The position numbers and the translations under genes are program-made. A stretch of 64,000 nt of DNA from an uncultured Nitrososphaeraceae archaeon (GTDB lineage Archaea > Thermoproteota > Nitrososphaeria > Nitrososphaerales > Nitrososphaeraceae): NCBI GenBank assembly GCA_963825865.1, contig CAWGVG010000022.1, positions 1 through 64,000 on the forward strand, written 5' to 3'. The notes under the pieces were generated by a model that ran no database searches, was not told where the DNA came from, and saw only the letters and a list, made by a program, of their open reading frames with translations. This document shows, one piece after another, positions 1,692-40,493 of the stretch (position 1 is the stretch's first letter; each line of letters begins with the position of its first letter).

Positions 1692-2368
1692 CAATAGTCC
1701 AAATAAATGAGTGTGGGTGCATAATTCCCAATTCATAATTTTTACCAATTTCATTTGATAATTTGGTATATAGCTAGCCTTAGGATGTCTGATGTTTTAT
1801 AGTAAATAACAATCAAATCCACCTACAGAAGGCTAGCTGCAACAAATGCTTCAGAATAACTCTAATTGGCATTCCCTGGTTGTGTGTTGGCAACGTTAGG
1901 CTGAAAAACATGGAAAGTCAATATTAAAGCCTATTAGCACTAACACTTCAGCAAATGGTACGCCTTCACTAGATGATGGATTATTACTTATGATAGTTTG
2001 GCCTTTCTCCCGCGTTTGAAGCAATTTATACTGCTCCTCTAAGTTGCTCTTCATGATGGCAATCATGGGATTGATTATGATCCTGCAAGTAATAGATACA
2101 CATTCTATGTCAAAACTTATTTTATCGAATTCAAGGCTGGAGTTAACAAATACATCCGTCATTTAGAGGACGGAACTGAGAACATATACCTCTTTGAAGA
2201 GTGCTTAATCGATAGACCAATGTTAATCTGACCTATAACTCAATTATCCGTTTCAACATAAAACAATGAAGAAATAAGCACCAAATACCAAATACCAAAT
2301 GGGAAATGAAATTAGAAACATCTGTAACCTGTAACTACCATATCTGCAAGCTCTTTCAATAGTTGTTA

Positions 2369-3395
2369 TCATCTTTGATATTCACTTAATCTATAGAAGT
2401 GCATCGCCAGCCTAAAAGCGTCAAACACATCATCATATGATGTGGCTTCCTTGTTCAATACAGCATCATTTTCCACTGCCGTTCCGAGTGATGTTATCAG
2501 CTTGTCAAATTTTGGATTTATTGCAATATATCCCCCTTCTCTTTAAGAACATTTTGCAATTCCCCAGCATGGACTTGTGCTCAGTTGAAAAGTTTACGGG
2601 GATGACATCCATGCTAAACTCATAATTTCTCTTTCTGCTCTTTGCTTCCTTTTATCTCCTCATATTCTTCGTCTTCTCCTATCTGTATCTCAGAGCCCGT
2701 ATGAATGAGGGGTTGGAGCCATCGATGTATATTTTGTTTATTTTGCCAAACCTCCTGAAGAGGTCCCACACAACAGATAACATCTGGTTAAAGTCAGGCC
2801 TCTGGTATTCCTTGGCGTGCATTATCTTTTGGTTTTCGAATCGCTCGTAATCACAATTCCAAAGGCAGATGACCCAAAGGCCGGTCTATGCCCATTGATT
2901 TCTGGGAGTAGTCGTTTATCTCAGACGGGCTGTATCCGTGCTTTCTGTATCGCTGCTTCAATATCTTTGGTATGGAAGACATTTCCAATAAGTCCCAGGT
3001 ATTTTAAATTGTATTCCCTTTCAAAGGATGGCGAGGCCTTGGCCTTGTCTATCTCCTCTTGAGTGTATATCTTGTCAAGGCCATAACTATAATCTAAGAG
3101 CAATCTTTTGTATATGCAGGCTCTCATCTTCTTTCTATATGTTCAAACAAGCCGTCGGGAGCAATTGCGTTGAAACCATAACAATGTAAGGGTCTGATTT
3201 TGCAATGTATCTTTCCGATACATCTCTAACATCTTCTTGTTCTCCTTTTCTAAAGAAATCGGCTTCGTCTAGCAATATGAACTGGGATTATCGAAGACTC
3301 TGTAAGCATCTATGTGGTTAGAAGGATATGCTTCAATTCTGCAGCCATTGAGCTCGAATACCGTTTCCTTATTGGCAAAGGTTAAAACCCAGTTT
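2369..3395 (-). pseudogene. Terminase large subunit (viral DNA-packaging ATPase/nuclease), 5'-truncated, several frameshifts
   Basis: Reverse-strand reading across frames: ELNGCRIEAYPSNH, Walker B FILLDEADFF, coupling motif IVMVST, SFEREYNLKY, nuclease MGID, IYIDGSNP, terminal YDDVFDAFRLA. Confidence 0.75.
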
Positions 3396-3474
3396 CGCTC
3401 CGTGATTCCTCAGATCAAGCTAGAAAGTTCCGAGCGATGGTTTATGAGGAGCAACTGCACTGTAAACTACCACT

Positions 3475-5152
3475 ATGAGCAACACACCCAAGGGACTTCC
3501 GCTAACCAGATCTCATATCGAGCAAATATTTCCGAAATTAACGCCAGCACAGATTCGTCGCATTGCAGCGCGCGGGCAAATGCGTGCGATGGAGCGTGGC
3601 GAAGATACTTTACGAGCAGGGAGACAGCGGCGTGCCGTTTTTTGTGGTTGTCTCCGGCGAGCTTGAGGTTGTGCGCCCTTTGGTGCCCTGTTGAGACCCT
3701 TGTCACCGTACATGGTCCTGGTCAGTTCACGGGCGAGGTCGGCACGCTCTCCGGCCGACCGACTCTCTTTCGCGTGCGTTCCACTAAGCCGGGTAAGGTG
3801 ATCGAACTGGATCGGCAACATATGCTGGCTTTGGTCCAGAGCGATGCTGAGCTCGGTCAGATCCTGACGCGGGCTTTCATTCTCCGCAGGGTTGAGTTGG
3901 TGGCGGCTGGCGTGGGAGATGTTGTGCTCATCGGGTCAACGAATTCGGCCGGTACGCTTCGGATCAAAGAGTTCCTGATGCGCAACGGACACCCCTACTC
4001 CTACATAGACCTCGAACGCGACCCTGACGTACAGAACCTATTGGATAGTTTCCATCTCGCAGCCAGCGAGATACCCGTGGTGATCTGCCGAGGTAAGGTT
4101 GTGCTTCGGAATCCCAGTAACCAGCAAATCGCAGACTGCCTCGGCTTCAATGAATCTATTGACCAAACCCAGGTGCGCGATCTCGTCATCATCGGCGCCG
4201 GTCCCTCGGGGTTGGCTGCGGCAGTGTATGGTGCTTCAGAAGGGCTTGACGTTCTGATGCTGGAAACGAGTTCGCCTGGAGGCCAGGCAGGTTCAAGCTC
4301 AAAAATCGAAAATTACTTGGGATTTCCCACAGGTATCTCTGGCCAGGAGCTTGCAGGTCGGGCGTACAACCAGGCGCAGAAGTTCGGCGCAGAGATGCTC
4401 ATCGCCAAGGGTACGCGACTCGTCTGCGACAGCAAACCGTACGTTGTCGAAGTCGAGAATGGAGCTCGAATTCCTGCACGCACTATCGTGATTGCAACCG
4501 GGGCTGAGTATCGAAGGCCGCCATGCAAAAACTTGTCGCGCTTTGAAGGTGCGGGCGTATATTACGGCGCGACATTTGTGGAAGCGCAGTTGTGTGGCGG
4601 AGAAGAGGTGATTGTGGTTGGTGGAGGAAACTCAGCCGGTCAGGCTGCCGTGTTTCTGGCTGAAACTACAAAGCGCGTGCACATGCTCGTCAGGTCTGCC
4701 GGTTTAGTCGAGAGCATGTCGCGCTATCTGATTCGTCGGATCGAAGAGACTGCTACGATAGTATTACGGCCGTACACAGAGATCGTGGCGGTCGAAGGGG
4801 ACGATCATCTCGAATTCGTTCGCTGGCGAAACAATCAAACGGGACAGACTGAGGAGCATAACATCAGCCACGTATTCGTCATGACGGGTGCCGATCCGAA
4901 CACCCGTTGGCTCGATGGCTGCGTTGCACTCGATGCTAAAGGCTTCATAAAGACGGGTCCCGATCTATCGCCAGAAAATCTGAGCTGCTGCAGGATGGCG
5001 CCTTGCCCGTCATCCGTATTTGCTCGAAACCAGTTTGCCAGGTGTTTTCGCAGTGGGCGACGTGCGCGGTGGTAGCATCAAGCGTGTTGCGTCCGCCGTG
5101 GGCGAAGGATCAATTGCGATCTCATTTGTTCATAAAGTACCTCCAGGAATAG
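3475..5152 (+). CDS. cNMP-binding domain plus thioredoxin-reductase-like FAD oxidoreductase (bacterial type), frameshifts near both ends
   Basis: GPGQFTGE cNMP fold; IIGAGPSGLAAAVY, GGQAGSSSKIENYLGFPTGISG, VGGGNSAGQAA, GVFAVGDVR...KRVASAVGEG; true start probably ATG 3475 (MSNTPKG). Confidence 0.85.
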
Positions 5153-5276
5153 GAAACAGATCGAACCAATCAAAGCATACTTGTATGTAAGGTAATGTTG
5201 AAACTTCATTTGGTGTTTTACATTGGAAAAAAACTTCAGCATTGCAATATCCTCTTTGGAAGGAAGTGGAGTGCGG

Positions 5277-5639
5277 TTAGCCGGCGGTTGGATGTGGAGA
5301 GCCTAAATAAGGGGACGTTGCAAGCAGGTCTTGATGGGGGCCTACTTTGTCCGTAGTCACTCGTCCATTCGTTAAGACGGCCAGTTGGATATCGATAATA
5401 TCGTCAGTTAGCTTCCGACCATTACGATAGCCTTCGGAACTAGAGTAATCGTAGTCTAGGATATCTGGCAGAAGGCTGAGAGCTGTCTGCTGAGCACTCT
5501 CGGGGTTATGTCCAAACGACTCTAAGAGATCAGCAAACTTCTTGGTAAAGAGTTCCCGGTCGCGTGTTGGCTCAATGCGATTAAACGTGTCCTTATCCTC
5601 TGCCCTAGTAAAGGCTACGTTAACAAATGGACGTCCCAT
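5277..5639 (-). pseudogene. DUF4331-family protein, C-terminal fragment
   Basis: MGRP.VN, LLPDILDYD, NGRKLTDDIID and PYLGSPH are typical of the DUF4331 C-terminus; no N-terminal half upstream. Confidence 0.65.
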
Positions 5640-6314
5640 TCAGTCAATTTGGAAAAAGGGATTTCCATCTTTGGGAATCAGAACCCGGTACTTACTATGT
5701 TTCTTATCTATAGTAACAAGTACATTGCCTTATGTTTTTCTAATTCAAATCCAAACTCAATTTATCATATAGTTTGACAAGATTTTGGATGGTTGTCAAC
5801 CGAATACCTCTGAAATCCCTTCTAAGATATTCCCTTTAGTTCCTTTGGATATATTGAACGGAAAACCGTTGATTAGGGTACCATGGGAAAATGAAACCGT
5901 ATGACAAACATAAAAAGGGTTTCAGATATCTCTGATTAGAAAACAAACTGATATCGCATAAAAGTGGTGGAGAAGCAGGCATCCATACTGAATATGAAGG
6001 ATAGCAATCAGGATCTGGTGGTGGTGTTGAAGGTTCCGGTTGTCTTACTGCCATCTGATTCGTTATCTTATTAGAAATCGTCTGTGTAGGTATTAGTTGA
6101 CTTGTTACTACAACATATTGGTCAACGATAAGATATCCTCCTCCGGACAGTAAGACAGACAGTAATGATTATGTCAAGCTCCTGATTAACTCCAAACGAA
6201 AGCAAAGACATAACAAATAAGCCTTGCGAAATCTCGTTGTTTTACTACTGTCAAATCTGGAGTTGAATATAATAATAATGATGCGATGATTGATGGTGAC
6301 TGAACTCGCTATCT

Positions 6315-7293
6315 CTACAGCTGACCGATCAAATGCACAAGTCGTGACTGTTCATTATCGGCATCCGTTATAGGCACTAGGCCTACATATAGCTCATTTA
6401 AACCTGAGCCAGAAGTTCAGTAAACCGTGCAGCCACTGTTGCTTCATTTCCGGATACTATCAAACTGTCTATAAGCGATTCAGATATCATTTGACCGGCT
6501 GTTAATGGAAAACCTGCATCAGCAAACATTTTAGCATAAAAAGGAAACTTCGCGTACATATCAAGCAGTTGATGTCCTGCAGCAAGTACAGAATCACGAT
6601 CCTGACTAAGCGCCACTGAAACATGTGCCACCAATGGAGGAGCTGATCTTCCAACTGCAGAGCCTGCTGCTGTGTGTAACGTCGGAATTGCAGTTCGGAT
6701 CAAATACGGAACTGGACACATAAATGAAAGTGCTCCATCAGCGATTTCTCCAGCCAGTTGAAATGCTTTCTTTCCTAATGTTGAAATTAACACTGGAATC
6801 TGCGACGTATGTGGGAATGTCACTTTAACATTAAAGAACTGTCCATGATGATCTACTTTGCCTTCCCATAACATGTACGTAGCACATTTACATATTCGCG
6901 CAGGTGAGCTAACGGCGTTGTCTGTGGTAAGCCATAGATGCCCTCTATAATAGACTGATGACTGGGACCTATCCCAAGGCGCAAACGACCTGGTGCAATA
7001 TCATATAGAGACCGAGCCTGCTGTGCCAGAACGAGTGGATGACGTGGATAGGTTGGCACAATGGACGTTCCTAAGCGTATTGTAGATGTTTTTGTTGTTG
7101 CTGCTGCAAATGTAGTCAATATGTCTGGCGACCAAGGTGATTGTACTATCCATATTTGCCGTACTCCGGCAGCTTCTACTGCGGCAATAGTTTTTACTGC
7201 AGCCGCCGCATTCGTGCCATCCACGACAAGTCCAACGCGTTCTCGTGTTGGCCGCAGACTCGAGGGAACTTGAAAACCCGAATCTTTTGTCAC
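6315..7293 (-). CDS. LLM-class flavin/F420-dependent oxidoreductase, frameshifted
   Basis: IRLGTSIVPTYPRHPLVLAQQA, GRLRLGIGPSH, LAGEIADG in consecutive ORFs 6853-7347 and 6398-6874. Confidence 0.85.
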
Positions 7294-7399
7294 ATTTTCA
7301 CCTTTAGCTGTAGCCGGTCTGAGTAGGATTTCATCTTGAAGCTTCACTCAAAATCTACTATTTTAACATTAAAACAGCCCAGCTGGTTTTTTCATTTAA

Positions 7400-8559
7400 T
7401 AGCTCAGCTGCCTAGTGGTTCACGTTCATTAAATATCTGTGCAAAATGCTTGTTTGCAGTACAGTATTTACCACAAGGAGTTATTCTAATCAAAGGACTT
7501 TTAACAGTATTTCAATCAACATCGACAACATTCTGGTATCAATGGGTAAAGGATCTAGTGAATAAAATTAGCAATGGACTTTCTGCAAGCAGTGAGGATA
7601 AAATTGAGACTATAGGAAAAAAAGAAGTTAATGGCGTAGCTGTTGATACATTGCTTGCAATTATGAAAATGGGGATAAGAGTTAATCCCAATACTTCTTT
7701 GACTATGTGGCTATTATCAAATCTTGGAAATAAAGCAGATTGCCAACTAGATACAATTCCTAACTTCTCGTTAAACTTTCTGCATAAAGCTGCAAAATAT
7801 GGACTTGATAACGACATCAGAGAATTAACCGTTAAGGACAAATCTTATAATTATTCCTTCCTTAACTGCATTACCAAAAAGCTAGATTACCTTCCTTTAT
7901 ACCCGTCAAAGAAGTTTAGCAACGAGGGCGCTTCCTCTGAACTCTTCTTATTATATCAAACGCATATACGAAACTATCCAGCTAAAACACTTCATACTGC
8001 CTACAAAATAGCACAGTATGTAAACTCTAAGGTTGATCCTGAAAAGCATAAGGGCCTAGGCATAGATATTCATAAAGAAATTAAAAAGCAAAATACTGTT
8101 AAGCAGAGGATTATTGAAATGGCTGAAGAAGGAAGCATTACATTTGATGAATATTATAATCTCTTCGTTGTCTCTCATCTGGGTAATCCTTGGCAACTCA
8201 TAAGGTATTATATGCTCTCTGATATTGCAGGTTTTAAGACTATTGAGGAAGCAGATAATGACAAGTTAAACAATAATCAAGAGTTTAAGAATAGAGTTAT
8301 CACCATAGGAACTGCAATCTTTAACTCATACATTGAGAGAAGAGGAAGAGAGAGGCTTATTAGGGGCGTGCTAGGTGGGTTGGCTCATGGACGCATACAT
8401 GCAAATTGGTTGAGAAATCAATTCAAAAGACTAGCGGAAGAAAACGAGGACTTTGACTATAATGCTAGTTGGAAAGCACTCTGCATAAACAAGCAAGGCG
8501 AGGAGTCTGTATATGAAGTTCTATATCTCTTCAGACTTCTATTTACAACATTACTATAG
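7400..8559 (+). CDS. cas8: CRISPR-associated Cas8 large subunit (Cst1/CXXC-CXXC, Cas8a1/Cas8b1 family), N-terminally truncated
   Basis: LPSGSRSLNICAKCLFAVQYLPQGVILIKGLLTVFQS resembles the Cst1 second-CxxC region; SLTMWLLSNLGNKADCQLDTIPNFSLNFL resembles its conserved middle block; CRISPR repeats start about 35 bp downstream. Recognised by eye, no HMM run. Confidence 0.7.
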
Positions 8560-8592
8560 TACAGACTTGAACATTTACAGTGAGTGACGAAA

Positions 8593-8753
8593 TAAGTATA
8601 TAGTACAATCGACGATTTAAACGTCGATTCTAATTATATCCTGTCTTGTATTTCCGTGGTTCTAAACTATTATAGTACGATTTAAACTAATGGCTACTAT
8701 GACAATATAGAGCAGTATGGCGCGTTTCTACACTATTATAGTACGATTTAAAC
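8593..8753 (-). CRISPR. CRISPR mini-array: 2 intact 30-bp repeats plus 1 degenerate repeat, 2 spacers (35 and 36 bp)
   Basis: GTTTCTACACTATTATAGTACGATTTAAAC at 8724-8753; 28/30 copy at 8658-8687; degenerate copy ending ACGATTTAAAC at 8622; spacers 8623-8657 and 8688-8723. Orientation inferred from leftward decay and the GTTTAAATC...GAAAC reading on the minus strand. Confidence 0.8.
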
Positions 8754-9071
8754 AAACGTGTGTATTTCCATCGTGGGAAGAAGGTAATAAAAAAGAAGCT
8801 GTAAAATGAGATAATGGTTTGGATACTATTCAGGACATTAACAGCATATAGAGGATAGCATAATACTTTTCTTTCCCTTGCTATACCATGTTGATGCGTA
8901 TCGATACATATGTAATTTAGTATCATAGTAATTATAATTATTTATTGAGTTGGTACTACGTGGCCTTATCCAATATCCATTCTTTTACTATTTAATTAAG
9001 ATCATAATTTTCACTCATATGCTATCGATGACAAGGCTTATAAAAAAGAGAACATCCTATAGGTAGGAAGA

Positions 9072-9413
9072 ATGGCAAGTACAATATTCAGAGTGCAGTC
9101 ACACAAATTTAGCCAAGACAACATTCAGACAACTCTGGTATGTTCAAAGTGCGATGAGGTATTCTCTAAGGAATTTCCTTTAGACCTTGAAGGTCAGACT
9201 ATAGAATTTAAATGCCCAGTCTGTGGAGCATCTGGTGAAGCCGATCTTCCATATAAAAGCGCCGAAGAAAGAGAGGAGTTTGAAGAGGACTTTGAGGAAG
9301 CAGAGGAAGAAGAAGGCGGAGAAGAGTTCGAAGAAGAGTACATAGTTATGGTTTTTCTATATATGATGAAGGGTATTATTTCTAGACATGTGGCAATAAA
9401 CGATTTACTATGA
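9072..9413 (+). CDS. Small Zn-ribbon protein with a highly acidic C-terminal tract
   Basis: CSKC...CPVC followed by EEREEFEEDFEEAEEEEGGEEFEEEY. Confidence 0.65.
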   Translation: MASTIFRVQSHKFSQDNIQTTLVCSKCDEVFSKEFPLDLEGQTIEFKCPVCGASGEADLPYKSAEEREEFEEDFEEAEEEEGGEEFEEEYIVMVFLYMMKGIISRHVAINDLL

Positions 9414-10356
9414 TTTTTGATAATGTTTGATTTGCCTGACTACATTGCTAGTTATTTAATAAGGTCATACCTTATAGAACAACTTCTTTATTAGAATATA
9501 ATATATGATCTCACTGAGAATATGACTTATCGTAATTTTATAATACATGGATAATAAAAAAGCATAAAGATAAATATTGAAATTCATCTTGAATGAAAAT
9601 TGTGGTTAATATGTTTGAGCATTTACTCCTATATTGTTATTATTTTTCAAACTCATGTTTTAAGTAAGTTCACCGGCAAGATCTCTCACCAAATCATATT
9701 CCATCACTAGTGATTTTTGTAGGTAAACGGTTGTAATACGTATGCTATTGATAAAGGCTTAGCCACTTTTATATCCGATTTAGATAATATCACTTCTGAA
9801 TTATTTTGCAGTATCGAATGTTGAGATTTACAGTCTATATTCCAAACTGAAGTTGTAGTTGTTTTGTCGACGACAACTATTTTCAGAGACGACCGCTGTT
9901 ACTAAATTTAGATTTACCAAGATCATAATCATTCTTCTAATTCTATAAAAAAAGCATTCTTTACTCTTACTTTATTATGGAGACTGTTCTTGTGTATTGC
10001 AAATATGATTTCGATAATGCCTCTTTGAAATCTGTATGGTGAGTAGGAAAGTGATATCCTGTTTCCCGGAACAAACGCTTGAGTATTACGATATGAAAAT
10101 ATATAAGAATATTCCAATATGGACAGCCTCATAACGCGCATCCGAAATTAGCTTCTTGTTTAAGCTGTTTTTGAATTGGTATTGGAACATTTCTTCCATT
10201 AGATGACATTCAGAGACAGCTTCCGATAATGTATTAATAAAATGACTTCGATTTGGCTGACTCTTTAATACCATAATTTATGTTGTAAAGTTGTTCAATA
10301 TCAATAATAATAAAAAATCAAGTAGCTGCTCTAAAGAATAAAGGCAACAGCTACTG

Positions 10357-10605
10357 CTACTTTTTCTTCCCCTTTACAGTTTTCCTTGCCTTACTTTTTG
10401 TTCCAGGCTTTAGTGCAACCTTTGCCTTGCCCTTAGATTTTACTACGCTTCCTCCTCCTTCACCGCCGCCGATCTTGAACATGTTAGTTCCACATGTGGT
10501 GCATGTTCCAGATAGAGCTTTCCTACCATTTTTCATAGTTACCTGTTTTTCACCTTTCATTTCCCTCTTTGATTTACATTTTACACAATATGCTTGTGTA
10601 GCCAT
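10357..10605 (-). CDS. DUF5679-type Zn-ribbon protein with Lys-rich tail
   Basis: AYCVKCKSKREMK...KNGRKALSGTCTTCGTNMFKIG. Confidence 0.8.
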   Translation of the reverse strand: MATQAYCVKCKSKREMKGEKQVTMKNGRKALSGTCTTCGTNMFKIGGGEGGGSVVKSKGKAKVALKPGTKSKARKTVKGKKK

Positions 10606-11078
10606 TACTTTCACATTAGCTAAATCTAACTCCCTCTTAAAGTTATATTAAATATAGACCTACGGAGAATTCTATAACGCATATATATAATACAGAGCCT
10701 GTACAATCCTTAAATGATTCTTATATTCTATATATTATCAATAATTATATATGTTAATTCAATAGTTTGCCACAAAATGAAATAATAATGCCAAAATTAC
10801 AGATAAAATACAAGTTAAATAAATTACTAGGTTACGGGCTTAATTTAAGTCGGTTCATCAAATAACTTCTGCTAAACACAAAATTTATAATTTTTTTGTG
10901 GATTCTTCTCCTAACGAGTGTACTTTTCAAAACTATATAGTTTAAATCAATAATTTGAACTAAGTATTGTCTTTTATGCTAAAACACCTTTAACCACCTT
11001 AAGACCTTGACAATAAGAATTACCAGAAATCCAAATATTAGTGCACATTAAATAACTATCTTGTGGTTGAGAAAAATA

Positions 11079-11381
11079 ATGGCTGAAGATACATCATCAA
11101 CAGCTTCGAACACTATTCCATTTCCTACCTTGACTATTTTATATTTGCCAGCACAGGCAGAGGGCATAATAGAAGAAGTGAGCCAGAAATATTCGAATAT
11201 AACGGTAGAGGACTGCAAAGGATTTTTTCACAACGGGGTACAAAGAGAGTATAAAAAGGTAACTATCTGGAGTCAGGGAATTGATAGTTTGTGGTTTAAT
11301 GCGATCATTGCTAGCATTAAGGAACGTGCCAGTGTAGAATTTGTACCAATAGTATCAGGCGGAGTAATGTATTCTGTTTAG
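11079..11381 (+). CDS. Hypothetical protein
   Basis: Clean ORF of about 100 aa with normal composition. Confidence 0.45.
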   Translation: MAEDTSSTASNTIPFPTLTILYLPAQAEGIIEEVSQKYSNITVEDCKGFFHNGVQREYKKVTIWSQGIDSLWFNAIIASIKERASVEFVPIVSGGVMYSV

Positions 11382-11693
11382 ACTAAATGTTTTTGATCGA
11401 CCTTTCCATCATTCATATCTATCAATATTATACTCATTTATTTGTACTAACTGAATATCATCAATATAACATGATTAATCTTTTAGAACATATAACGAGC
11501 GCTATATGGGCACAAGATATGGAGTAAATCGAAGGAAACTGATTATTTTATGATTTATTTATTCGTTTTTTTGTAACTATGACTACTATAAAGCATATAT
11601 TTATATTCGAATGAGTATATAGACCGCATAGAAATCCGGCGGGTTATATTCAAACATCACGAGGTTGTTGTTGAGTTTGTTATCTCAAATGAA

Positions 11694-12356
11694 TCAATCA
11701 TTTTTTGTATAGTAGGCAAGTAAGTGGAGTATCTTGCTCGCTTCTGCGTTATAGGAAATGATGTATACTTTATCACTTTTTACTGTCCAAACCAGCATTG
11801 TCTCGAATTTGAATGGTACATTGTCAGTTGGAGGCAAAAAAACTATTTTGTGAGCTGGATTACCTGCAAGAGTTGTTGGATTTGATTCTATAGTCTTTAC
11901 ACCCGGTTGCTTTAATGTGTTGTTAAGTACAGTATTAAATTTCTGTAATGTTATATGTTGTGAATAACCAGTTATTGACAGAGTCAGATGTTCAGGAAAT
12001 ATGTCTGAAATGTTTTCTAGTGGCGAATAGAATGCAATAACGTTTGTATAATCTCTAAGACCGCTTTTGGAAGCTGACCAATCAGACGGATATTGCATTT
12101 TTATTGAATAATCGGGATTCTGATATGTTCGGAAATTATTATTTGTCGTTGTTGTTATATGGTTAGTCTGAAAAGAGCGCGACATTGTGGTTGTAGTCGC
12201 GTTGTTTTGCAGTAATGCTGATCCTTTTGAGAGAGTAAGTGAAGTAAATGAAAGTGTCAGTAATCCTATTGTTAGGAGTTGGAACAAAACATATTTATTT
12301 TTATCATACATTCCAAGTACTCTTATTAGTTGGGTATTTAATTTTTCTAAAACCAA
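11694..12356 (-). CDS. Secreted PsbP/Mog1-like domain protein, C-terminal frameshift
   Basis: Signal anchor, Thr/Asn linker, YQNPDYSIKMQYPSDW, TTLAGNPAHKIV, KVYIISY. Confidence 0.75.
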   Translation of the reverse strand: MVLEKLNTQLIRVLGMYDKNKYVLFQLLTIGLLTLSFTSLTLSKGSALLQNNATTTTMSRSFQTNHITTTTNNNFRTYQNPDYSIKMQYPSDWSASKSGLRDYTNVIAFYSPLENISDIFPEHLTLSITGYSQHITLQKFNTVLNNTLKQPGVKTIESNPTTLAGNPAHKIVFLPPTDNVPFKFETMLVWTVKSDKVYIISYNAEASKILHLLAYYTKND

Positions 12357-21232: not shown

Positions 21233-22264
21233 CGCTCTTATTCAGTAAATGTTTCAGCTAGTTGTAACCAAGAACTTTCATGAATCTTTCCTTTCTGTTG
21301 TCTGTATCACTCCTGCTGTTGTGAATAAACTGGAAGGTCTTTGTATATGACTGCAGGTTGTGTTTGTTAACACCCATGAACTTTCTGATCCATATCTTGT
21401 AAAGGTTGCTTCTACATTCACAATTGTTTACGTGTACAACTCCTCTTGCATATTCTTTTTGAGAATGACATACTTGTTTATGTACAAATCCATATTCTTT
21501 CAACTTCCTATAACCCAGATATTCGTCTGTGTATACTTTACAATGACGATGTACGGATTTACAAATATTACTGATCAGAGATTGTTTGGTACGAACATCA
21601 AAATATGTCATTCCTCCTCCTACTCCTCTTCTCTGATGAATACATGTTATCATTGGATTTTCCTTTTCATAGGTACCTCTTCCTCTCCAAGGTTTCAATC
21701 CTCTATGTCGTGGTAGTCTTCCAGAATTTAATATCTCTAGGTGATATGGTCTACCTTTCAGACCAGCCTTAATGTAGAATTCATCTGCTTCAACTATCCC
21801 TCCAAGTTTAACACTACCTAATGCAGAAGAAGAAGAAGAAGAAGAAGAAGAAGTTAATCTTTTCATGACAGATCTGATAAATTTGTAACATCTGTAATAT
21901 GACACACGTACTTCCAATGATGTTTCATGTATGGAACATCCAGGCCACAGTACAAAGAATAGGTATAATGCTAGGAACCATGCTTTCAATGGTGTATGTG
22001 AATAGTGAAATATTGTACCTGTTTTATCGTTGAACCACCTTTTACATTCTTTGCAAAAGTACTTCTGATATGAACGATAATACCCATCTTTCTTCACTTG
22101 CAGAGAATTACAATGTGGGCAAACTGCAAAGCTATTCCATCTGACATTTCTAAGTACTTTAGCACACCATCCTTCATCAGGGAGAGATTCGGAAAGCGTG
22201 AACATGTGTTTTCTAAGTAGAGGTTAGCAATAAGGCCGGCTGAAACATTCTATCAATAAGAGCG
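21233..22264 (-). mobile_element. Complete IS1595-family insertion sequence
   Basis: 26-bp imperfect TIRs (21233-21258 and 22239-22264, 22/26 match); perfect 8-bp TSD TATCATAT at 21225-21232 and 22265-22272. Confidence 0.93.
21258..22205 (-). CDS. IS1595-family (ISXO2-like) transposase
   Basis: Zn ribbon CPHC...CKEC, KTGTIF, VEADEFY, VYTDEYLGY, VHVNNCE; intact 315-aa ORF. Confidence 0.92.
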   Translation of the reverse strand: MFTLSESLPDEGWCAKVLRNVRWNSFAVCPHCNSLQVKKDGYYRSYQKYFCKECKRWFNDKTGTIFHYSHTPLKAWFLALYLFFVLWPGCSIHETSLEVRVSYYRCYKFIRSVMKRLTSSSSSSSSSALGSVKLGGIVEADEFYIKAGLKGRPYHLEILNSGRLPRHRGLKPWRGRGTYEKENPMITCIHQRRGVGGGMTYFDVRTKQSLISNICKSVHRHCKVYTDEYLGYRKLKEYGFVHKQVCHSQKEYARGVVHVNNCECRSNLYKIWIRKFMGVNKHNLQSYTKTFQFIHNSRSDTDNRKERFMKVLGYN

Positions 22265-32746: not shown

Positions 32747-33059
32747 CTTGAATATAAGAGAGTAGCACAAATTTATAAATAATTAATGAGAATAAATACA
32801 ACTCTACAAGTTTAACTCGTTATAGATTTGCATCGTACTTCATAGGTTATTTCCAAACTGTTTCTGACATTTGGCCTAGGATTACGTGTTAAAGTAGTAC
32901 AATCTATTATCATTTCATTTGCCATCTTGGTTATTGTAGGGTATTCAGCTATTGATAGTCCAACAAGAAGAGTAAATTGTGTTATAGCTAGCTACTTTTC
33001 TCAAAAGGATTGCTCAAACTTTGATTGCTTATATTCTATTATGTACAACCGATTAATAT

Positions 33060-33567
33060 ATGAACAACAAGATATTGGTTTCAATAGCAATGCCTAATGA
33101 AAAGGATTTAGAAGTTATGAATGAATCTGTAAAAACATTGGGATCGTTCGGAGTGTCATATGAGGTAATGGTAATCTCTGCTCATCGAATCCCCGGAACA
33201 AATGATTGAATACGCCAAGAATGCAAAAGATAGAGGTATTGAAGTTATTATAGCGGCAGCAAGCGGTGCTGCACATTTACCTGGGATGATTGCTGCATTT
33301 ACAACATTACCTGTAATTGCTGTACCTTTAAGGTCGTCTCTTCTTGATGGATTGGATTCGGTTCTTTCTATACTACAGATGCCAAATGGGGTTCCTGTTG
33401 CTACAGTGTCAGTTAATGGCGCTAGGAATGCAGCGATCCTCGCTTGTCAAATCATAAGTTTGCACAATGAAAACATTAGACATCAATTTGATAAGTTAAA
33501 AACGAGTTTGGCCATAGAAGTCCAAGAACAAGCAGAGAAGGTTAAATCAAAATCGTCAATTGTATAA
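33060..33567 (+). CDS. purE: PurE-family N5-CAIR mutase, divergent, frameshifted
   Basis: [52 protein letters not shown]. Confidence 0.85.
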
Positions 33568-33793
33568 TACAATATTGTTTGGTGCATTAGATCCCAAGTC
33601 GCAGTAACATTTCTTTGGATTTTTTTTGATATACTCACCCTACACTAATCGAGGAAATCATCCCTTTTGAGATTTTGTAATTAACTTCATATATCCGAGC
33701 AATCTGTTTTATGATATATGCAATTTTTCATTTTTTATATAGATTAAACTTAAAAAGTTTAGTCAAACATATACTTTAGGAAATGAATATCAA

Positions 33794-34573
33794 ATGATTC
33801 CAGATGACGGCAAACCGATCTTATGGAAAGAGCTGAGTTGGAAGGATGTAGACAAATTTACAAAGACCATGAAGATGGCTATTATTCCAACAGCAGCATG
33901 TGAACAGCATGGTCCACATTTACCATTAGCGGTTGATACAATTGATTGTTATGAGGTGGCAAAGAGAGTTTCTGCAAAAACTGGAGTTCCAGTAGTCCCC
34001 GCCATTGTTGTATGGTTGCTCTCAGAGTCATGGTGCCTTTCAGGAACATTGTCAATCAGGCCCGAAACTATGATCATGACAATCTGTGAAATTGCAGAAT
34101 GGCTTTACAGGAGCAAGATTCGAAAATGATATGGCCGGTCCAATATATTAGCTAGGGAGAACCTGCGTTACGATTTTCCAGACCTTCAAGTAAGAATACG
34201 AAACTGGTGGGCAGCAAACAATGTCTAAACTTGTGGAAAATTGTCCCGTTTTTCCTTCATACATACATGCAACATTGCTGAAACAAGATGCGTATTAGCA
34301 ACAAGACCGGATTTAATAGACATGAAACAAGCAGTTGATGAGGACGACTATGAAACATTCTTTGAATACAGAATGGATCAATATTCAAAATCTGGGGTAG
34401 TAGGCAGAGGTGCAACTAAAGCAACGTCTGAACTGGGAGAAAAACTCTTGGGCATGGTCGTAAAAGAGCTCGTTTCTATTATCCAAAAAGCTCTTAACGA
34501 GGTAAAACCAAAACAGCGGCACCGCAACAACAATAGCAAGAGCAGTAACGTCACAAAAAAAAGTGAGCAATGA
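33794..34573 (+). CDS. Creatininase (creatinine amidohydrolase) family protein, frameshifted
   Basis: ELSWKDV, EQHGPHLPLAVDT, GTLSIRPET, H..IAET, SKSGVVG...AT.ELGEK. Confidence 0.85.
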
Positions 34574-34576
34574 AAG

Positions 34577-34780
34577 ATGTCAGAAAAGACGCGGGCTTAT
34601 ATAATAACTAACATAGGCGCATTGGTAGCCATGATTGTTGTAGTAATCAATATGTTTACTTTTAGAGAAATGTGGATATTATTTACTACAGTAGCAGTTA
34701 TGATTGTCTTAGTGGCATATGCAGTACAAGAGAAACGTAAACTTAAAAGGAAACAAACACAAAACCTAGGGTCGCCATAG
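34577..34780 (+). CDS. Small 2-TM membrane protein
   Basis: Two hydrophobic helices, basic tail; starts 3 bp after the creatininase stop. Confidence 0.65.
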   Translation: MSEKTRAYIITNIGALVAMIVVVINMFTFREMWILFTTVAVMIVLVAYAVQEKRKLKRKQTQNLGSP

Positions 34781-35122
34781 CGATAGAATTAAAATCAAGG
34801 CCCTAGCAAAATTGTTGTTGCTGCTAAGATCAAATGAGAAAGCGATATTTGATTAAAAACGGAATGGAGATAATGAAAGAAGTGAGAACAGCAAGATAAA
34901 TTCTAGGAATCACTAACAGATTAAAAATAAAAATTATTTATCATTTTTTCATTTTCATTTAATTTTTAACACAATTTTTTTATGTAAACAATCTCTTTCT
35001 AACATATCATAAAAAATAAAAATTTACATATATCATTATTAATTAGTTTTAGAATTTATATTAATTTACTCAAATTTTATGACATTTATTTATATCTAAG
35101 TTTAGTATGTTGAAATTATACT

Positions 35123-36712
35123 ATGGTCGAAGTAAAAGAAGAATATGCTGAGAAACCTGTTCCACAAAATGCAAGGTTGGGATTTTTAAAACCCGCTATG
35201 GTATGGGCAGGCTTTGCTCACGCATACATTTGCATCTTTATTGGAAGTCAAATAATGGGTGGTTTAGGTGCACCGATAGGATATGCCGCTATTATATCTG
35301 GACAAATATTTTTGTTCGTATATTCCGGCTTAATCGCACACAGAGGTGCTAAATTAGGATTAAATTTCTCAATGATGTGTAAAGCAGCGTTTGGAAAATA
35401 CGGATATATCGTTCCTGTGCTTTTGATATCAGGATTGGTTGCTGGCTGGTTCATCTTCCAAGGATGGTTGGCTGGAGATCTGACCGTGGGTCTTTATGGC
35501 GGCAAGTCTTTTAACGCAGGAGTAGGAAATGGCGTTCTTCCAGGCATTTTAGGTACTACAAGTTTTTGGGCTGGCATATGGTGCGTAGCATTCGGATTTT
35601 TAGCAGTCTCCGGTATGAGGGCCATGGCGTGGTTTGGTAAATTTGCCGTCTTCACGGTAGCGGCTTTAGAAGTATGGATGATATATTCAATATTGACAGT
35701 CGTCGCCTCACACACAGGGGGAAATCCGTTAGTTTCACCAATAGTAGGTAAACCTTGGACATTTGCACTTGGTTTTACGGCATCAGTTGGAACATTTATC
35801 GTTAGCAGTACTATGACAGGTGACTTTGTCAGGTGGACAAAAAATGCAAAGCAAGCATGGGCAGTGACAGGAATTGCTTTTCCAGTCTGCAATTTGGTAA
35901 CGTTAATGATAGGTGCAATCTATACAGCAGTAGCAGGAAAACTTGACTTTTTCTTTGGGTTAAGTGCAGTAGCTCTTGGATTACCAATCATGATTATGCA
36001 GTTGGCAAGCAATGGTTCAGTTTGCGATGGATGTTTGTACAATGCTGGTCAAGGATTCAAGAACATAACATATTACATCTCAAAGGGAAGAATCAATTAC
36101 TCATGGAAGAAGGTAACAATGATTGTGATGTTTGCAGGCGCTGCTATTGCTGTATCAAACTTGATTACCAATATAGTTCCATGGTTACTAACTATAGGAA
36201 CCCTAGTGCCCCTAGTAGGTGGGGTTTTGATAGGTCATTTTTGGATTGTTGCACGAAAGAACACTCTAGACGAACATCTCGTTGCGGCTGATAGAAAAGT
36301 AAATACTCCAGCACTAATTGGCTTGGGAGTTGGACTAGTAATAGCAGTAGTAATTCAATTCACTGCTCCAGACCTGCCAGCTGTTATTGGTGGATTGATA
36401 GGAGGTATTGGAGTATATCCAATTGTCGCAAAAACTACTGGCTACTTCATGAATGGAAGGCTTACTGCAAAAGGACTTGGAGGCAGCATTAGTTATGGGA
36501 CTGCTGGAGCCATGGATAATACAGATACACCAACTTCGCCAGATGCCGGAGCACCTAGTGCACAGACAAAGGACACCTATAATAAAAACACCAGTAGTAG
36601 TGGAAATAGCTTAGGGAGTGGGGGTACTGATCAGATAAGCGCAAAAATAGACAAACTGGTCGGGTTTTTGGCACCATGGTTCGGTTCATCATCGCGTACA
36701 GGAGGATCATAA
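35123..36712 (+). CDS. NCS1-family (cytosine/purine/allantoin, CodB-like) permease
   Basis: EEYAEKPVP...R, about 12 TM helices, GAKLGLNFSMMCKAAFGKYG, GWF, GDFVRW, LYNA. Confidence 0.88.
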   Translation: MVEVKEEYAEKPVPQNARLGFLKPAMVWAGFAHAYICIFIGSQIMGGLGAPIGYAAIISGQIFLFVYSGLIAHRGAKLGLNFSMMCKAAFGKYGYIVPVLLISGLVAGWFIFQGWLAGDLTVGLYGGKSFNAGVGNGVLPGILGTTSFWAGIWCVAFGFLAVSGMRAMAWFGKFAVFTVAALEVWMIYSILTVVASHTGGNPLVSPIVGKPWTFALGFTASVGTFIVSSTMTGDFVRWTKNAKQAWAVTGIAFPVCNLVTLMIGAIYTAVAGKLDFFFGLSAVALGLPIMIMQLASNGSVCDGCLYNAGQGFKNITYYISKGRINYSWKKVTMIVMFAGAAIAVSNLITNIVPWLLTIGTLVPLVGGVLIGHFWIVARKNTLDEHLVAADRKVNTPALIGLGVGLVIAVVIQFTAPDLPAVIGGLIGGIGVYPIVAKTTGYFMNGRLTAKGLGGSISYGTAGAMDNTDTPTSPDAGAPSAQTKDTYNKNTSSSGNSLGSGGTDQISAKIDKLVGFLAPWFGSSSRTGGS

Positions 36713-36716
36713 AGAA

Positions 36717-37606
36717 ATGAATCGCAAAAAAAATCTTCCACAGTCCGCAATACCAAATAAAGACTTTGTTTCGGCAGCAAGGGACGAAGTACTCGATAGA
36801 GTTGAAAAAGACTATGAAGAATTCAAAAAAACACACACTTTCGAGTTTCCAACTTGGCTACATGGTCCTCCAAAAGGTAAACTGTTCAAAGTAGAAGTAG
36901 AAGATTGTCCACGCTTTGGTGATAAGGCTTTTGTTGAATTTGACTCAGCTAGGACAGCATTTTTGAGCATTGATATGCAAGTGGATTTTTGCGGTCCAAA
37001 AGGATATGTTGACGTTATGGGATATGATCTTGGATTAACTTCAGCTCCTATAAAGCCAATCATGCATGTTTTAGACACAATAAGAAATGAAACTGACATT
37101 AAAGTAATACACACTAGGGAAGGACACTTGCCAGATCTTTCGGATGCACCATACAACAAAGTCCTTCGAAGCAAAATCATTGGAGACGGTGTAGGAATTG
37201 GCAATATTCCGACAAGGCGGACTAGGACGATTGCTAGTAAGAGGAGAAAAGAATTGGGACATAATTGATGAATCTGTATCCAATTCCTGGAGAATACGTA
37301 GTAGATAAAGCAGGAAAGGGAGGATTTGGCCAGAGCAATTTACCATTGATTTTGAAGAATCTGGGAATAACTCACCTAGTTATTACTGGAATTACTACCG
37401 ATGTGTGTGTACATACTATAATGAGAGAAGCAAATGATCATGGCTATTGGTGTACTCTACTAAAAGACGGTACTGGCGCCACAGATTATGGCAACTACCA
37501 AGCTGCAATAAAGCAAATCAAAATGCAAGGAGGAGTATTTGGTTGGGTATCTGACTCGAATAAGTTCGTTAATGCAGTCAAATCTGCTTTTAAAGGTGCC
37601 GACTAA
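36717..37606 (+). CDS. biuH: Biuret hydrolase (isochorismatase-like cysteine hydrolase), one frameshift
   Basis: IDMQVDFCGPKGYVDVMGYDL, HTREGH.PDL, DKAGKG, GITTDVCVHTIMREANDHGY, GATDYGN, KMQGGVFG: Asp-Lys-Cys triad plus BiuH signature residues. Confidence 0.85.
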
Positions 37607-39029
37607 TGAGTAGCCTAATTACACTAACAAGCATCAAGACAATGTCTGATAGAATAAGGCACGGAGATTTGTCTCCATCGGAGCTAGTTGAAGCCTGCTT
37701 AGAAAGAATCAAGAAATTTGACTCATCTCTAGATTCTTTCATTACTATTCTTGAAGAACGTGCGCGTCAAGATGCAAAAATAGCTGAAAAACAAATCAAG
37801 GAAGGACTCTGTATTGGTCCTTTGCATGGTATTCCATTTTCAATTAAGGATGTCATCTATGCAGAAGGAGTTAAATGTACTGCAGGTTCAAAAATAATGT
37901 CTGATTACGTTTCAAAAATTAACGCAACCTCTGTTGCAAAAATGAAAAAGGCAGGTGCAATTCTAATTGGCACTAATAATACCCATGAATTTGCTTGTGG
38001 GATAACTAACGTAAATCCGCACTATGGTTCTTCTAAAAATCCCTGGAACATATCAAAAATATCTGGAGGTTCAAGTGGAGGTTCAGCTGTTTCAGTAGCA
38101 GCAGGCATGGTACCTGTATCCTTGGCTACTGACACAAGCGGTTCTATTAGAGTTCCATCTTCACTTTGTGGTGTTGTCGGTCTAAAGCCAACATATGGTA
38201 GAGTCAGCAAATATGGGATTGTTGATTTGGCACCTTCGCTAGATTCATGTTGGGTGTATAACAAGAAGTGCATGGGATGCAGCTGCAGTATTGCATATTA
38301 TTGCTGGTCAGGATCCCCTTGATCCAACTACTGAAGATAAAAAAGTACCTGATTACGTTAAAGTTATCGAAGATGAATCTACCCCCATGAAGAAAATATC
38401 TGTTGGAATACCCAAAGAGGTACTTTTTCGATTATTTGTGGCTAGAAGTAGAAGAGGTGTTCCTTGATTTCGTTGATACTATAAGATCCATGGACATTTC
38501 TGTTTCTGATGTACACATTAGTGGAGCCGACAAAATCTATGAATCGTGGAGACCACTAAGACTTGGGGAATCAGCAGAGATTCACTTGAAATGGTTGCAG
38601 ACAAGATCAAAAGACTATGGTGAAGATGTACGAAGAATGTTGATACAAGGAACTGAAGTATCTGCAGTTGATTACATACGAGCTCACAAATATAGAAAGG
38701 AACTAAGAAATGAATTTGTGAAAGTATTAAAGAAGGTTGATGTGCTTATTATGCCAACTATTCCTCTCACTGCTCCGGGGTTTGACGAGCAAACAGTGGC
38801 TATTGGTAGCAGAACATTACAAATCTATCAAGCCTTAAGTAGAAATACTATTGCATTTGATAATACGGGACTACCTGCGGTTAACATTCCAGTTGGATTT
38901 GGGAAGGACAATATGCCAGTTGGAGCACAAATAATAGGGCCGCCATTTGAAGAAGAAAATATTCTGTCTCTAGCATATGCATACGAACATGCAAATGACA
39001 GTCTTATGAAATTCATGCCACCACTTTAA
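37606..39029 (+). CDS. Amidase-signature family enzyme (GatA/AtzE/allophanate-hydrolase-like), frameshifted
   Basis: GPLHGIPFSIKD, GGSSGGSA, DTSGSIRVPSSLCGVVGLKPTYGRVS, GLPAVNIP; start overlaps the biuH stop (TAATG). Confidence 0.9.
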
Positions 39030-39326
39030 CCTAAAGCATTTCAACTCAAATAAGAAATATCATTATTTTCGATCTGGCTTTAGGTAGAATATAAACTAGC
39101 TGGATAGGAAGCATCTTTTCTTTCCATTATTTTTGGTTCCACTTTTAATTTTATATGATAATATACTACAAATCCCGTAAATTACTGCTGTTTTAAACGA
39201 TTCATATAATTTTATTAATAACTTAAAGTTTCTCTACTTTTCATAGATAATAATAACAAATATTGTTATTATAGATTCGTTTATATGTATTCTAGGAGAT
39301 ATGCGTCATGTTAGAGATATTTCCAG

Positions 39327-40206
39327 TTGAAGATAGCCCGAATTCTGCAATATGGACAAGAGACTTTTGCGATTGTCAATGAAAATGGAAAGGCGATCAC
39401 GAGGAACGAAATAATCGATGAGACAGACTTGAATTTACCGTCTGATATAGAAGAGTTTATTTTCTCAGAATATGTCCACCAGGTAAAGGATCTTCATTTA
39501 AGCAGACAGTCCTTTATCCATGAGGTAAATGAGTTCCGTCTTCTACCACCTATAAGGAAATCTTTCAAAATAATATGTTTAGCATTCAACTACACTGATC
39601 AAGGAACATGGGTGCGATTCGGTAAGGATCCTCCTAAAGAACCTGTCATTTATTTAAAACCGAGGACGACTCTAATCGGTCCAACAGATGATATAATATG
39701 CCAAAATTTTGTACAGGAACTGGATTATGAGGGGGAGTTGGCACTTGCAATAGGTAAAAAATGTAGTAAAGTAGATGAAGATGATGCCCTCAACTATGTT
39801 GCCGGGTATTTTGTATTAAATGATGTTTCTGCTCGTGATGTGCAATTCATTGACAAGCAATATAGTAGAGCAAAGGGCTTTGATACATTTGGGCCATGTG
39901 GACCATGGCTAACAACTACTGATGAGATCTCTGATCCTTGTAATCTTCATATAACAACGAAGGTGAATGGTGAAACTAGACAAGATTCATCCACAAAGAA
40001 TCTTGTCTTAAAGATAGAAAAAATCATATGGAGCTTAAGCAAGATAATGACACTTGAGTCTGGTGATATAATATCGACCTGGCACACCAAGTGGCACTGC
40101 ACTATCTATGTCATCAAATACAAAATATCTAAAACATAATGATATAGTAGAAGTTGAAATAGAAAAACTTGGAAAAATCACAAACAGAGTCGTATTTGTG
40201 AATTAG
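39327..40206 (+). CDS. Fumarylacetoacetate hydrolase (FAH) family protein, C-terminal frameshift
   Basis: KIICLAFNY, LDYEGELA, NDVSARDVQ, AKGFDTFGPCGP, TLESGDIIS(TGTP). Confidence 0.9.
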
Positions 40207-40246
40207 AATACTTATTTTATTATTTTACATCGTCTAACCTGTGTTT

Positions 40247-40375
40247 ACTCTACAAATAGTGTTGTAACTGCAAGAGAATTAAAATCCGTTGATGAAATAA
40301 TGGATGATCAAAAAGAACCATGAGATAGCAATTACAAAGACAAATATTCTCATAAATAGTCCTGCAGTTCGATAG
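40247..40375 (+). pseudogene. 3' fragment paralogous to the secreted protein at 32111-32746
   Basis: ARELKSVDEIM...IAITKTNILINSPAVR versus ARELKSVNEIM...LTIAKTNIVINSPAVR. Confidence 0.7.
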
Positions 40376-40493
40376 GAAAACAGCTCTTACTTTTTTTATT
40401 GAATTTAATGTTTTTAATATTGTGCATTTATTTTTTACAAAATCATTTAATGGTATTGTACACCAAATCTTGTCTAACTAAAAATAGTGACAT

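Follow-up and report, generated by a model that had tools for sequence, protein, structure and literature searches.

This report concerns a compact gene unit at positions 35123-39029 of a 64,000-nucleotide stretch of DNA (hereafter, the window) from an uncultured Nitrososphaeraceae archaeon (NCBI GenBank assembly GCA_963825865.1, contig CAWGVG010000022.1, positions 1 to 64,000 of the forward strand). The unit comprises genes for an NCS1-family permease, a BiuH-type cysteine hydrolase and an amidase-signature amidase, and is probably an intact, expressed three-gene operon by which a soil ammonia oxidiser of the Nitrososphaeraceae imports biuret or a very similar small ureide and strips it to NH3. 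That biuret is what the unit imports and hydrolyses is a narrower proposition, which we also consider fairly probable. The genes and their open reading frame (ORF) pieces are as follows:

35123-36712, forward strand: NCS1-family permease, CodB-like, 529 amino acids (PF02133, E 1.2e-21)
36717-37606, forward strand: BiuH-type isochorismatase-like cysteine hydrolase, about 295 amino acids when read through (PF00857)
36717-37268 and 37265-37606, forward strand: ORF pieces of the hydrolase as assembled (PF00857)
37606-39029, forward strand: amidase-signature amidase, GatA/AtzE-like, about 475 amino acids when read through (PF01425)
37606-38322, 38291-38467 and 38403-39029, forward strand: ORF pieces of the amidase as assembled, of which the first and third match PF01425

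The middle amidase piece (58 amino acids) has no Pfam match and was assigned through its match to residues 220-278 of the amidase of a related genome, G015. The initial annotation had described the three genes as tightly coupled, and this can be read from the sequence: the permease TAA ends at 36712 and the hydrolase ATG starts at 36717, leaving a 4-base gap, and the hydrolase TAA (37604-37606) overlaps the amidase ATG (37606-37608) by a single base, the second A of TAATG. The permease scored 77.5 bits against PF02133 (cut-off 23.5), and its nearest solved chain was CodB (7qoa, 82 bits). Its assignment by sequence extends to the NCS1 family and not to a substrate, because the cut-off of the NCBIfam cytosine-permease equivalog was not reached (126 bits against 326). 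The permease C-terminus (36440-36712) consists of a low-complexity tail of about 90 amino acids rich in S, G, T and N, which is present neither in CodB nor in the haloarchaeal permease described below.

Gene order was compared in a family survey of 238 genomes, the tallies of which include the present genome (G000) and the unpublished G235. A BiuH orthologue occurs in 57 of the 238 genomes (56 of 237 without G235), in 35 of 116 high-quality genomes and in 11 of 18 genera; 22 of the 238 have an NCS1 orthologue (E 1e-50 or better), or 20 of 236 when the unpublished G235 and G236 are set aside. Of the 19 published relatives having the permease gene, 17 carry it immediately upstream of BiuH and in the same orientation; in the remaining two, the contig breaks off at the expected place of BiuH. 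The permease is strictly tied to BiuH in the family. Counts of adjacency between BiuH and the amidase are lower bounds, with the places of the two genes crossed by hand for about 150 of 369 amidase matches. At least 37 of 55 published BiuH-bearing relatives have an amidase homologue no more than 5 kb from BiuH on one contig, and in at least 28 the two are direct neighbours on the same strand (the amidase downstream as here in at least 11, upstream in at least 17); among the matches listed, 18 of the 55 have no amidase homologue near BiuH. The full order permease-hydrolase-amidase recurs, among the matches listed, in at least seven other genomes of three other genera, and because of this recurrence the gene order is not due to chance.

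The hydrolase contains all four motifs (GYVDVMGYD, DKAGKG, GITTDVCV and KMQGGVFG) from which a Rhizobium-type biuret hydrolase had initially been predicted. Its placement was based on pairwise identities, rankings against the PDB and NCBIfam, the tree as excerpted from PMC12625717, and a nine-sequence alignment in which the window protein was read through with X at both of its frame breaks. In this alignment the guanylurea hydrolase GuuH was represented by a KHPS1 plasmid gene that Table 1 of PMC9800807 (seen as an excerpt) gives as GuuH, and the triuret hydrolase TrtA by the second hydrolase of plasmid pRL10, whose residues are TrtA-type. Among solved structures, the C-terminal piece ranked Rhizobium BiuH first (126 bits), followed by Rhodococcus BiuH (112), Herbaspirillum TrtA (79) and RutB (52), and the other piece gave 87, 85 and 47 bits with the first three of these. 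Foldseek with a predicted model of the G015 hydrolase returned the same order, namely BiuH before TrtA before RutB. The window hydrolase is 54% identical to BiuH of Rhizobium leguminosarum (johnstonii) 3841 over 231 columns. In the Rhizobium enzyme, as described in excerpts of PMC5806882, the catalytic triad is Asp36-Lys142-Cys175, biuret is contacted by Lys145, Thr171, Gln215 (from the neighbouring subunit) and the backbone of Ile170/Thr171, and Phe41, Tyr47 and Val174 line the pocket. The triad is kept in the window, with the Asp of IDMQ, the Lys of DKAGKG and the Cys of TDVCV aligning to D36, K142 and C175. The alignment shows identity to Rhizobium BiuH at D36, F41, Y47, K142, K145, I170, T171, V174, C175, Q215 and V218, so that every residue reported in those excerpts to touch biuret in the crystal structure is the same.

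TrtA and BiuH consensus sequences differ at six positions according to excerpts of PMC7948467, and the window protein is BiuH-type at five of them (Y47, Y53, D173, T200 and V218). The six-position comparison is discriminating because the second hydrolase of pRL10 and an E. coli plasmid hydrolase show the full TrtA pattern in the same alignment. The KHPS1 GuuH-type gene has GEG where BiuH has QGG, that is, Glu for Gln215, and Tyr for Lys145; the earlier argument that this Gln points to biuret and Glu to guanylurea holds for the one GuuH-type sequence compared. Judged from its residues, the window hydrolase carries neither the TrtA-type set (F, N, E, Y, I) nor the GuuH-type Tyr and Glu, and it is predicted to convert biuret to allophanate and NH3. 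Its N-terminus is longer than that of the bacterial enzyme, as had also been noticed at the outset: the catalytic Asp is residue 86 in the window and residue 36 in Rhizobium BiuH, corresponding to an extension of about 50 amino acids. The Rhizobium 3841 enzyme (PDB 6AZO/6AZQ) thus shares the isochorismatase-like fold, the Asp-Lys-Cys triad and all biuret contacts with the archaeal protein, and its gene sits with atzD and an ABC transporter and not with an NCS1 permease.

A counterpart outside the nitrifiers was found on the Natronorubrum daqingense plasmid NZ_CP019329, which encodes a long-form hydrolase 64% identical to that of the window and sharing its N-terminal extension. The amidase gene of this plasmid starts one base after the hydrolase stop, and its product passes both allophanate-hydrolase cut-offs (630 bits against 487, and 577 against 511). 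Unlike the window amidase, to which it is about 36% identical over the first 216 residues, it thus counts by these cut-offs as a true allophanate hydrolase. The plasmid also encodes, nearby on the other strand, an NCS1 permease that shares 34% identity with that of the window. The set is likely a biuret module in a haloarchaeon; the module (7959-12284 of the extracted plasmid stretch) adjoins a transposase. Allophanate is what biuret hydrolysis yields, and the haloarchaeal homologue stands with a true allophanate hydrolase. The comparison offers the strongest indirect evidence for allophanate production by the long-form archaeal hydrolase, and for the replacement of AtzF by a GatA-like amidase in the nitrifiers.

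Both enzyme genes are broken as assembled. In the hydrolase the frame is broken twice and not once, at about 37211 and 37271; each break is one extra base relative to the intact orthologues of G015 and of the complete genome G001, and the letters separating the two are read in the third frame (GGLGRLLVRGEKNWDIID). The amidase likewise has two, at about 38244 and 38419, each one extra base relative to the G015 orthologue. Logan contigs of four public runs, each of a different study (X1 and X4, DNA; X2 and X3, RNA), were aligned to positions 32900-40400. Contigs of all four runs (two DNA, two RNA) omit one letter at 37211 and one at 37271. Contigs spanning the amidase show two gaps (X4), and one gap each was found across a downstream fumarylacetoacetate-hydrolase-family (FAH) gene and across a purE-like gene, the latter at 33188. 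X1, the best DNA match, may be the source sample, and X2-X4 come from other studies. Since the contigs of all four runs are without both hydrolase insertions, the frameshifts in the hydrolase and the amidase are assembly errors and the genes are intact in nature, in agreement with the earlier view that the frames needed repair. We regard it as highly improbable that the two genes are true pseudogenes of a decaying operon whose frameshifts exist in the organism. The presence of four frame breaks within 2.3 kb would fit such decay, but in addition to the gaps just described, the orthologues are intact in dozens of relatives, the genes are present in RNA libraries, and the damage is general, with purE, creatininase, FAH, gatA on contig C15 and an amidase paralogue on contig C33 broken in the same manner.

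The assembly as a whole (4.98 Mb in 62 contigs, with the window on contig C22) is 81.8% complete by marker genes and carries about one single-base indel per kb, all of them insertions where visible; only 39 stop-to-stop frames of at least 140 amino acids were found across the 64-kb window. Such an indel density, combined with a large genome and low marker completeness, is what an unpolished long-read assembly looks like, and gene calls from this genome need frameshift-aware reading.

The operon is preceded by a candidate promoter:

34781-35122, forward strand: AT-rich intergenic region, likely promoter (read from the sequence)

Within it, a TATA-like run (tttatttatat) lies at 35085-35095, about 28-38 nucleotides before the permease ATG. 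RNA-library contigs of two studies begin at 35132 and 35134, about 40 nucleotides after this run, and the DNA contigs run through. Because the TATA-like run is close to the ATG and the RNA contigs start just after it, a leaderless or near-leaderless mRNA is weakly suggested. The stretch or part of it is present in 20 public runs of 12 studies, 8 of them RNA libraries, and all 18 runs with the organism field filled are labelled soil or rhizosphere. The RNA contigs (X2, X3) cover 35132-38949, i.e., just the three operon genes. In X2, every bin in 32900-34907 and 38924-40400 has zero depth, and cover begins at 35132 and ends at 38777 among the pieces listed; the X1 and X4 DNA contigs cover the whole 7.5 kb evenly. 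This RNA evidence consists of assembled contigs of runs chosen for holding the stretch and hence speaks for presence and not for expression level, which tempers the case for an expressed operon.

From these data, a pathway may be proposed in which the NCS1 permease would import biuret or a very close small ureide. The BiuH-type hydrolase, acting through its Asp-Lys-Cys triad, would then remove one terminal amide to give NH3 and allophanate, a step proposed because the biuret-binding shell is fully conserved. The GatA/AtzE-like amidase would remove the next amide, most likely from allophanate, with the product breaking down to NH3 and CO2, as its position and the chemistry of its family suggest. 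Should the amidase not act on allophanate, this would decay to urea, to be split by the urease of the genome. By either route, up to three NH3 per biuret would be released inside the cell for assimilation and, possibly, for ammonia oxidation as an energy source.

Several further points weigh against a biuret operon of this kind, and some of them concern the amidase. Its closest solved relative is GatA (3h0l, 280 bits), followed by AtzE (6c62, 230 bits), AtzF (138 bits) and allophanate hydrolases (122-126 bits), and it falls below every NCBIfam cut-off. The best NCBIfam score came from the AtzE family NF006631 (371 bits, cut-off 461), with 348 bits for the AtzE family TIGR02715 (cut-off 426) and 354 bits for the GatA family TIGR00132 (cut-off 481). 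The intact G015 orthologue (487 amino acids) scored 235 bits against the allophanate-hydrolase model TIGR02713 (cut-off 511) and 248 bits against NF006043 (cut-off 487). The window enzyme is GatA/AtzE-like, not AtzF-like, as judged from these scores. It has the Ser-cisSer-Lys triad, with the SIKD lysine, the GGSSGGS motif and the DTSGSIR serine; the triad is common to the whole superfamily and is therefore not specific for allophanate hydrolase. Like the 1-carboxybiuret hydrolase AtzE/AtzG of Pseudomonas sp. ADP (6C62), it belongs to a group of GatA-derived amidases, the Pseudomonas enzyme acting on an N-carboxylated ureide. AtzE is insoluble without AtzG and needs it, according to excerpts of PMC6219798, whereas the window amidase has no such companion: no GatC/AtzG-like ORF was found on this contig, the only match in the genome lying on C15 beside gatA-gatB, and there is no small ORF between or after the operon genes and no AtzH nearby. 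Of the original proposal that amidase-signature enzymes of the AtzF and AtzE types finish such pathways, the amidase signature and the likeness to AtzE were recovered and the likeness to AtzF was not; removal of allophanate by this enzyme would follow from its position.

The amidase could in principle be the GatA subunit of the tRNA-dependent amidotransferase of the cell, standing beside the hydrolase by accident, as its best solved relative and its TIGR00132 score might suggest. This is extremely improbable, even more so than gene decay, because a separate gatC-gatA-gatB cassette is present on C15. In addition, the TIGR00132 score is below its cut-off, no GatB or GatC is encoded on this contig, homologues of the amidase directly adjoin BiuH in at least half of the relatives as counted above, and the amidase start codon overlaps the hydrolase stop. 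A second amidase of this type (C33, 64283-65735), also frameshifted, is 58-68% identical to the BiuH-linked amidase of G015; its neighbours are a cupredoxin, a CopD-like gene and an alpha/beta hydrolase, which give no clue to its function. Many relatives also have two such amidases.

Other points concern the hydrolase. The BiuH equivalog model NF050097 (curated cut-off 370 bits) gives the archaeal orthologues of G015 and G001 277 bits, which is below the cut-off and level with the GuuH-type enzyme (271 bits) and TrtA-type proteins (248-280 bits), members of the same superfamily; Rhizobium BiuH reaches 429 bits. The window hydrolase was scored on this model in pieces, the C-terminal one reaching 139.5 bits. 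Because the model places the archaeal clade level with GuuH-type and TrtA-type enzymes, overall sequence similarity does not settle hydrolase specificity. At discriminator position 147, by the published consensus as excerpted, the window has Gly, and G015, G001 and Natronorubrum have Ala, as TrtA does, where BiuH has Ser. The archaeal clade also carries, besides the N-terminal extension, a 4-residue insertion next to the active-site loops. An AlphaFold model of the G015 hydrolase, built from a shallow alignment (24 sequences at 75% identity or more), has a mean pLDDT of 67.8 with disordered active-site loops, and pLDDT is below 50 at residues 89-108 and 135-186, near the insertion and these loops. 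The roughly 50 extra N-terminal residues are confidently predicted as a helix and strands, and the model confirms the hydrolase fold while saying nothing on specificity. The biuret activity of the archaeal clade is thus a prediction from sequence. Accordingly, the identification as BiuH stands as regards the best solved relatives, the biuret contacts and five of the six discriminator positions, and falls short at the NCBIfam cut-off.

Genomic context adds two more points of this kind. The complete genome G001 has BiuH alone, with no amidase or NCS1 gene nearby. The module of other genera is accompanied by allFGHK and a Bmp-type ABC transporter, in keeping with a wider ureide metabolism: in G015, the hydrolase and amidase genes lie between allK/purE on one side and the Bmp-type ABC transporter, allF, allH and FAH on the other, and a further ORF of this cluster was assumed to be allG. 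These arrangements feed an alternative that we consider rather unlikely, in which the same architecture serves a different small ureide arising when purines or pyrimidines are degraded (triuret, carboxybiuret, oxalurate or oxamate, for example, or an unnamed compound), and biuret is at most a side substrate. Such a reading would also accommodate the NF050097 scores, the fact that the amidase is nearest to AtzE, a carboxybiuret hydrolase, and the conserved but unexplained flanks (a second purE, a creatininase-like gene and FAH). Guanylurea hydrolases are up to 65% identical to other members of the family in excerpts of PMC9800807, and triuret, carboxybiuret and biuret are all left open as substrates in those of PMC12625717. 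A TrtA-type hydrolase is moreover found beside allH-fdrA-allG-arcC on E. coli plasmids.

Against another ureide stand the conserved biuret-touching residues, the absence of TrtA-type and GuuH-type signatures from the window, and the pairing of the haloarchaeal homologue with a true allophanate hydrolase. Furthermore, tblastn with the G015 genes (E 1e-10) found no allF, allG, allH, allK, bmpA or nupBC orthologue in this 81.8% complete genome, and nupA matched only generic ABC ATPases at 26-33% identity. On the E. coli plasmid NZ_CP141198 (stretch 3965-8624), the TrtA-pattern hydrolase gene stands directly before DUF2877 (allH), fdrA (allF), DUF1116 (allG) and arcC (allK). About 90 E. coli plasmid records match the hydrolase query, and 12 E. 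coli records are among the matches listed, 45% identical. This tie of a triuret-type hydrolase to the oxalurate pathway is unexplained by current schemes.

The biuret operon remains the preferred reading. A more far-reaching version of it is possible, though we hold it only tentatively: the permease would represent an NCS1 lineage dedicated to biuret, an AtzG-independent, GatA-derived amidase acting on allophanate or carboxybiuret would have replaced AtzF, and the archaea would draw nitrogen and energy from fertiliser biuret.

The initial annotation had supposed the host to be an ammonia-oxidising archaeon (AOA), and this was corroborated. An intact archaeal amoA (383 bits) lies on contig C11 of the same assembly, and close public homologues of the hydrolase are labelled Nitrososphaera sp. 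or Nitrososphaeraceae archaeon by their sources; by gene content, the host is an ammonia oxidiser. Urease alpha is encoded on contig C14, and no cyanase was found in this 81.8% complete assembly. The host genus has no other species among the genomes compared.

The operon is flanked by the following genes:

33057-33567, forward strand: second purE-like gene (AIR carboxylase family), with one spurious base at 33188
within 33794-34780, forward strand: creatininase-family amidohydrolase, broken in the assembly
34577-34780, forward strand: 67-amino-acid, two-helix membrane ORF
39327-40139, forward strand: FAH gene, downstream flank

The FAH gene also closes the G015 cluster, at 71% identity. Two purE genes are present in the genome, 52% identical to each other, the other copy lying on contig C60 (101383-101868). 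The copy beside the module travels with the cluster, because it is 86% identical to the purE kept beside the G015 module. Compared with the window, the X1 DNA contig is longer by about 200 letters at about 33703 and by about 36 letters spread over 34125-34210, and because of these the creatininase-like gene in the window is either locally garbled or truly different. Elsewhere in the window, positions 2001-8000 have a G+C content of 41-49%, compared with about 33-35% in the remainder, and contain no rRNA; this segment may be foreign DNA. It includes a 589-amino-acid frame (3306-5075) in which a cyclic-nucleotide-binding domain is fused to a pyridine-nucleotide-disulphide oxidoreductase. An IS1595-family transposase with a zinc ribbon and a DDE domain lies at 21258-22223 on the reverse strand.

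At the level of genes, the prediction is well supported as an annotation but is not new, as an AOA cluster of this kind was already in print in October 2025 (PMC12625717, mSystems, of which excerpts were available). There, biuH was reported in 19 metagenome-assembled genomes (MAGs) of AOA, distinct from trtA and guuH, and the AOA BiuH was described as longer at the N-terminus and as containing insertions. In 68% of the biuH-bearing AOA MAGs, biuH adjoins a gene for an uncharacterised 'gatA-like' amidohydrolase that differs from gatA of gatCAB, atzE and atzF and was proposed to be an allophanate hydrolase; the figure here is at least 37 of 55 relatives. The same excerpts report allFGHK, bmpA-nupABC, purE, FAH, codB and creatininase genes as co-located, including in the cultured Nitrososphaera viennensis, read codB as a hint of pyrimidine use, and cite an earlier study for high-confidence biuH in Nitrososphaera. 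The clusters described there and the window agree in organism group, gene families and proposed role. By comparison with the clusters as excerpted, the window comes from another genome and is a compact, translationally coupled permease-hydrolase-amidase unit without allFGHK or bmpA-nupABC, and the permease is here strictly tied to BiuH. The literature searched, with subscription journals mostly outside the search, held no test of biuret use by an archaeal nitrifier and no assay of these proteins. The present analysis adds the demonstration of frameshift artefacts, a residue-level test, the strict permease-hydrolase linkage, the haloarchaeal counterpart and the RNA-library evidence.

Urea fertiliser contains biuret and triuret as impurities, and both compounds also form when purines and triazines are degraded. 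If the operon acts as proposed, the organic substrates of soil archaeal nitrifiers would extend beyond urea and cyanate, which would have a bearing on fertiliser nitrogen loss and on nitrification models. The finding would gain in interest should new activities be demonstrated for the permease and the GatA-like amidase.

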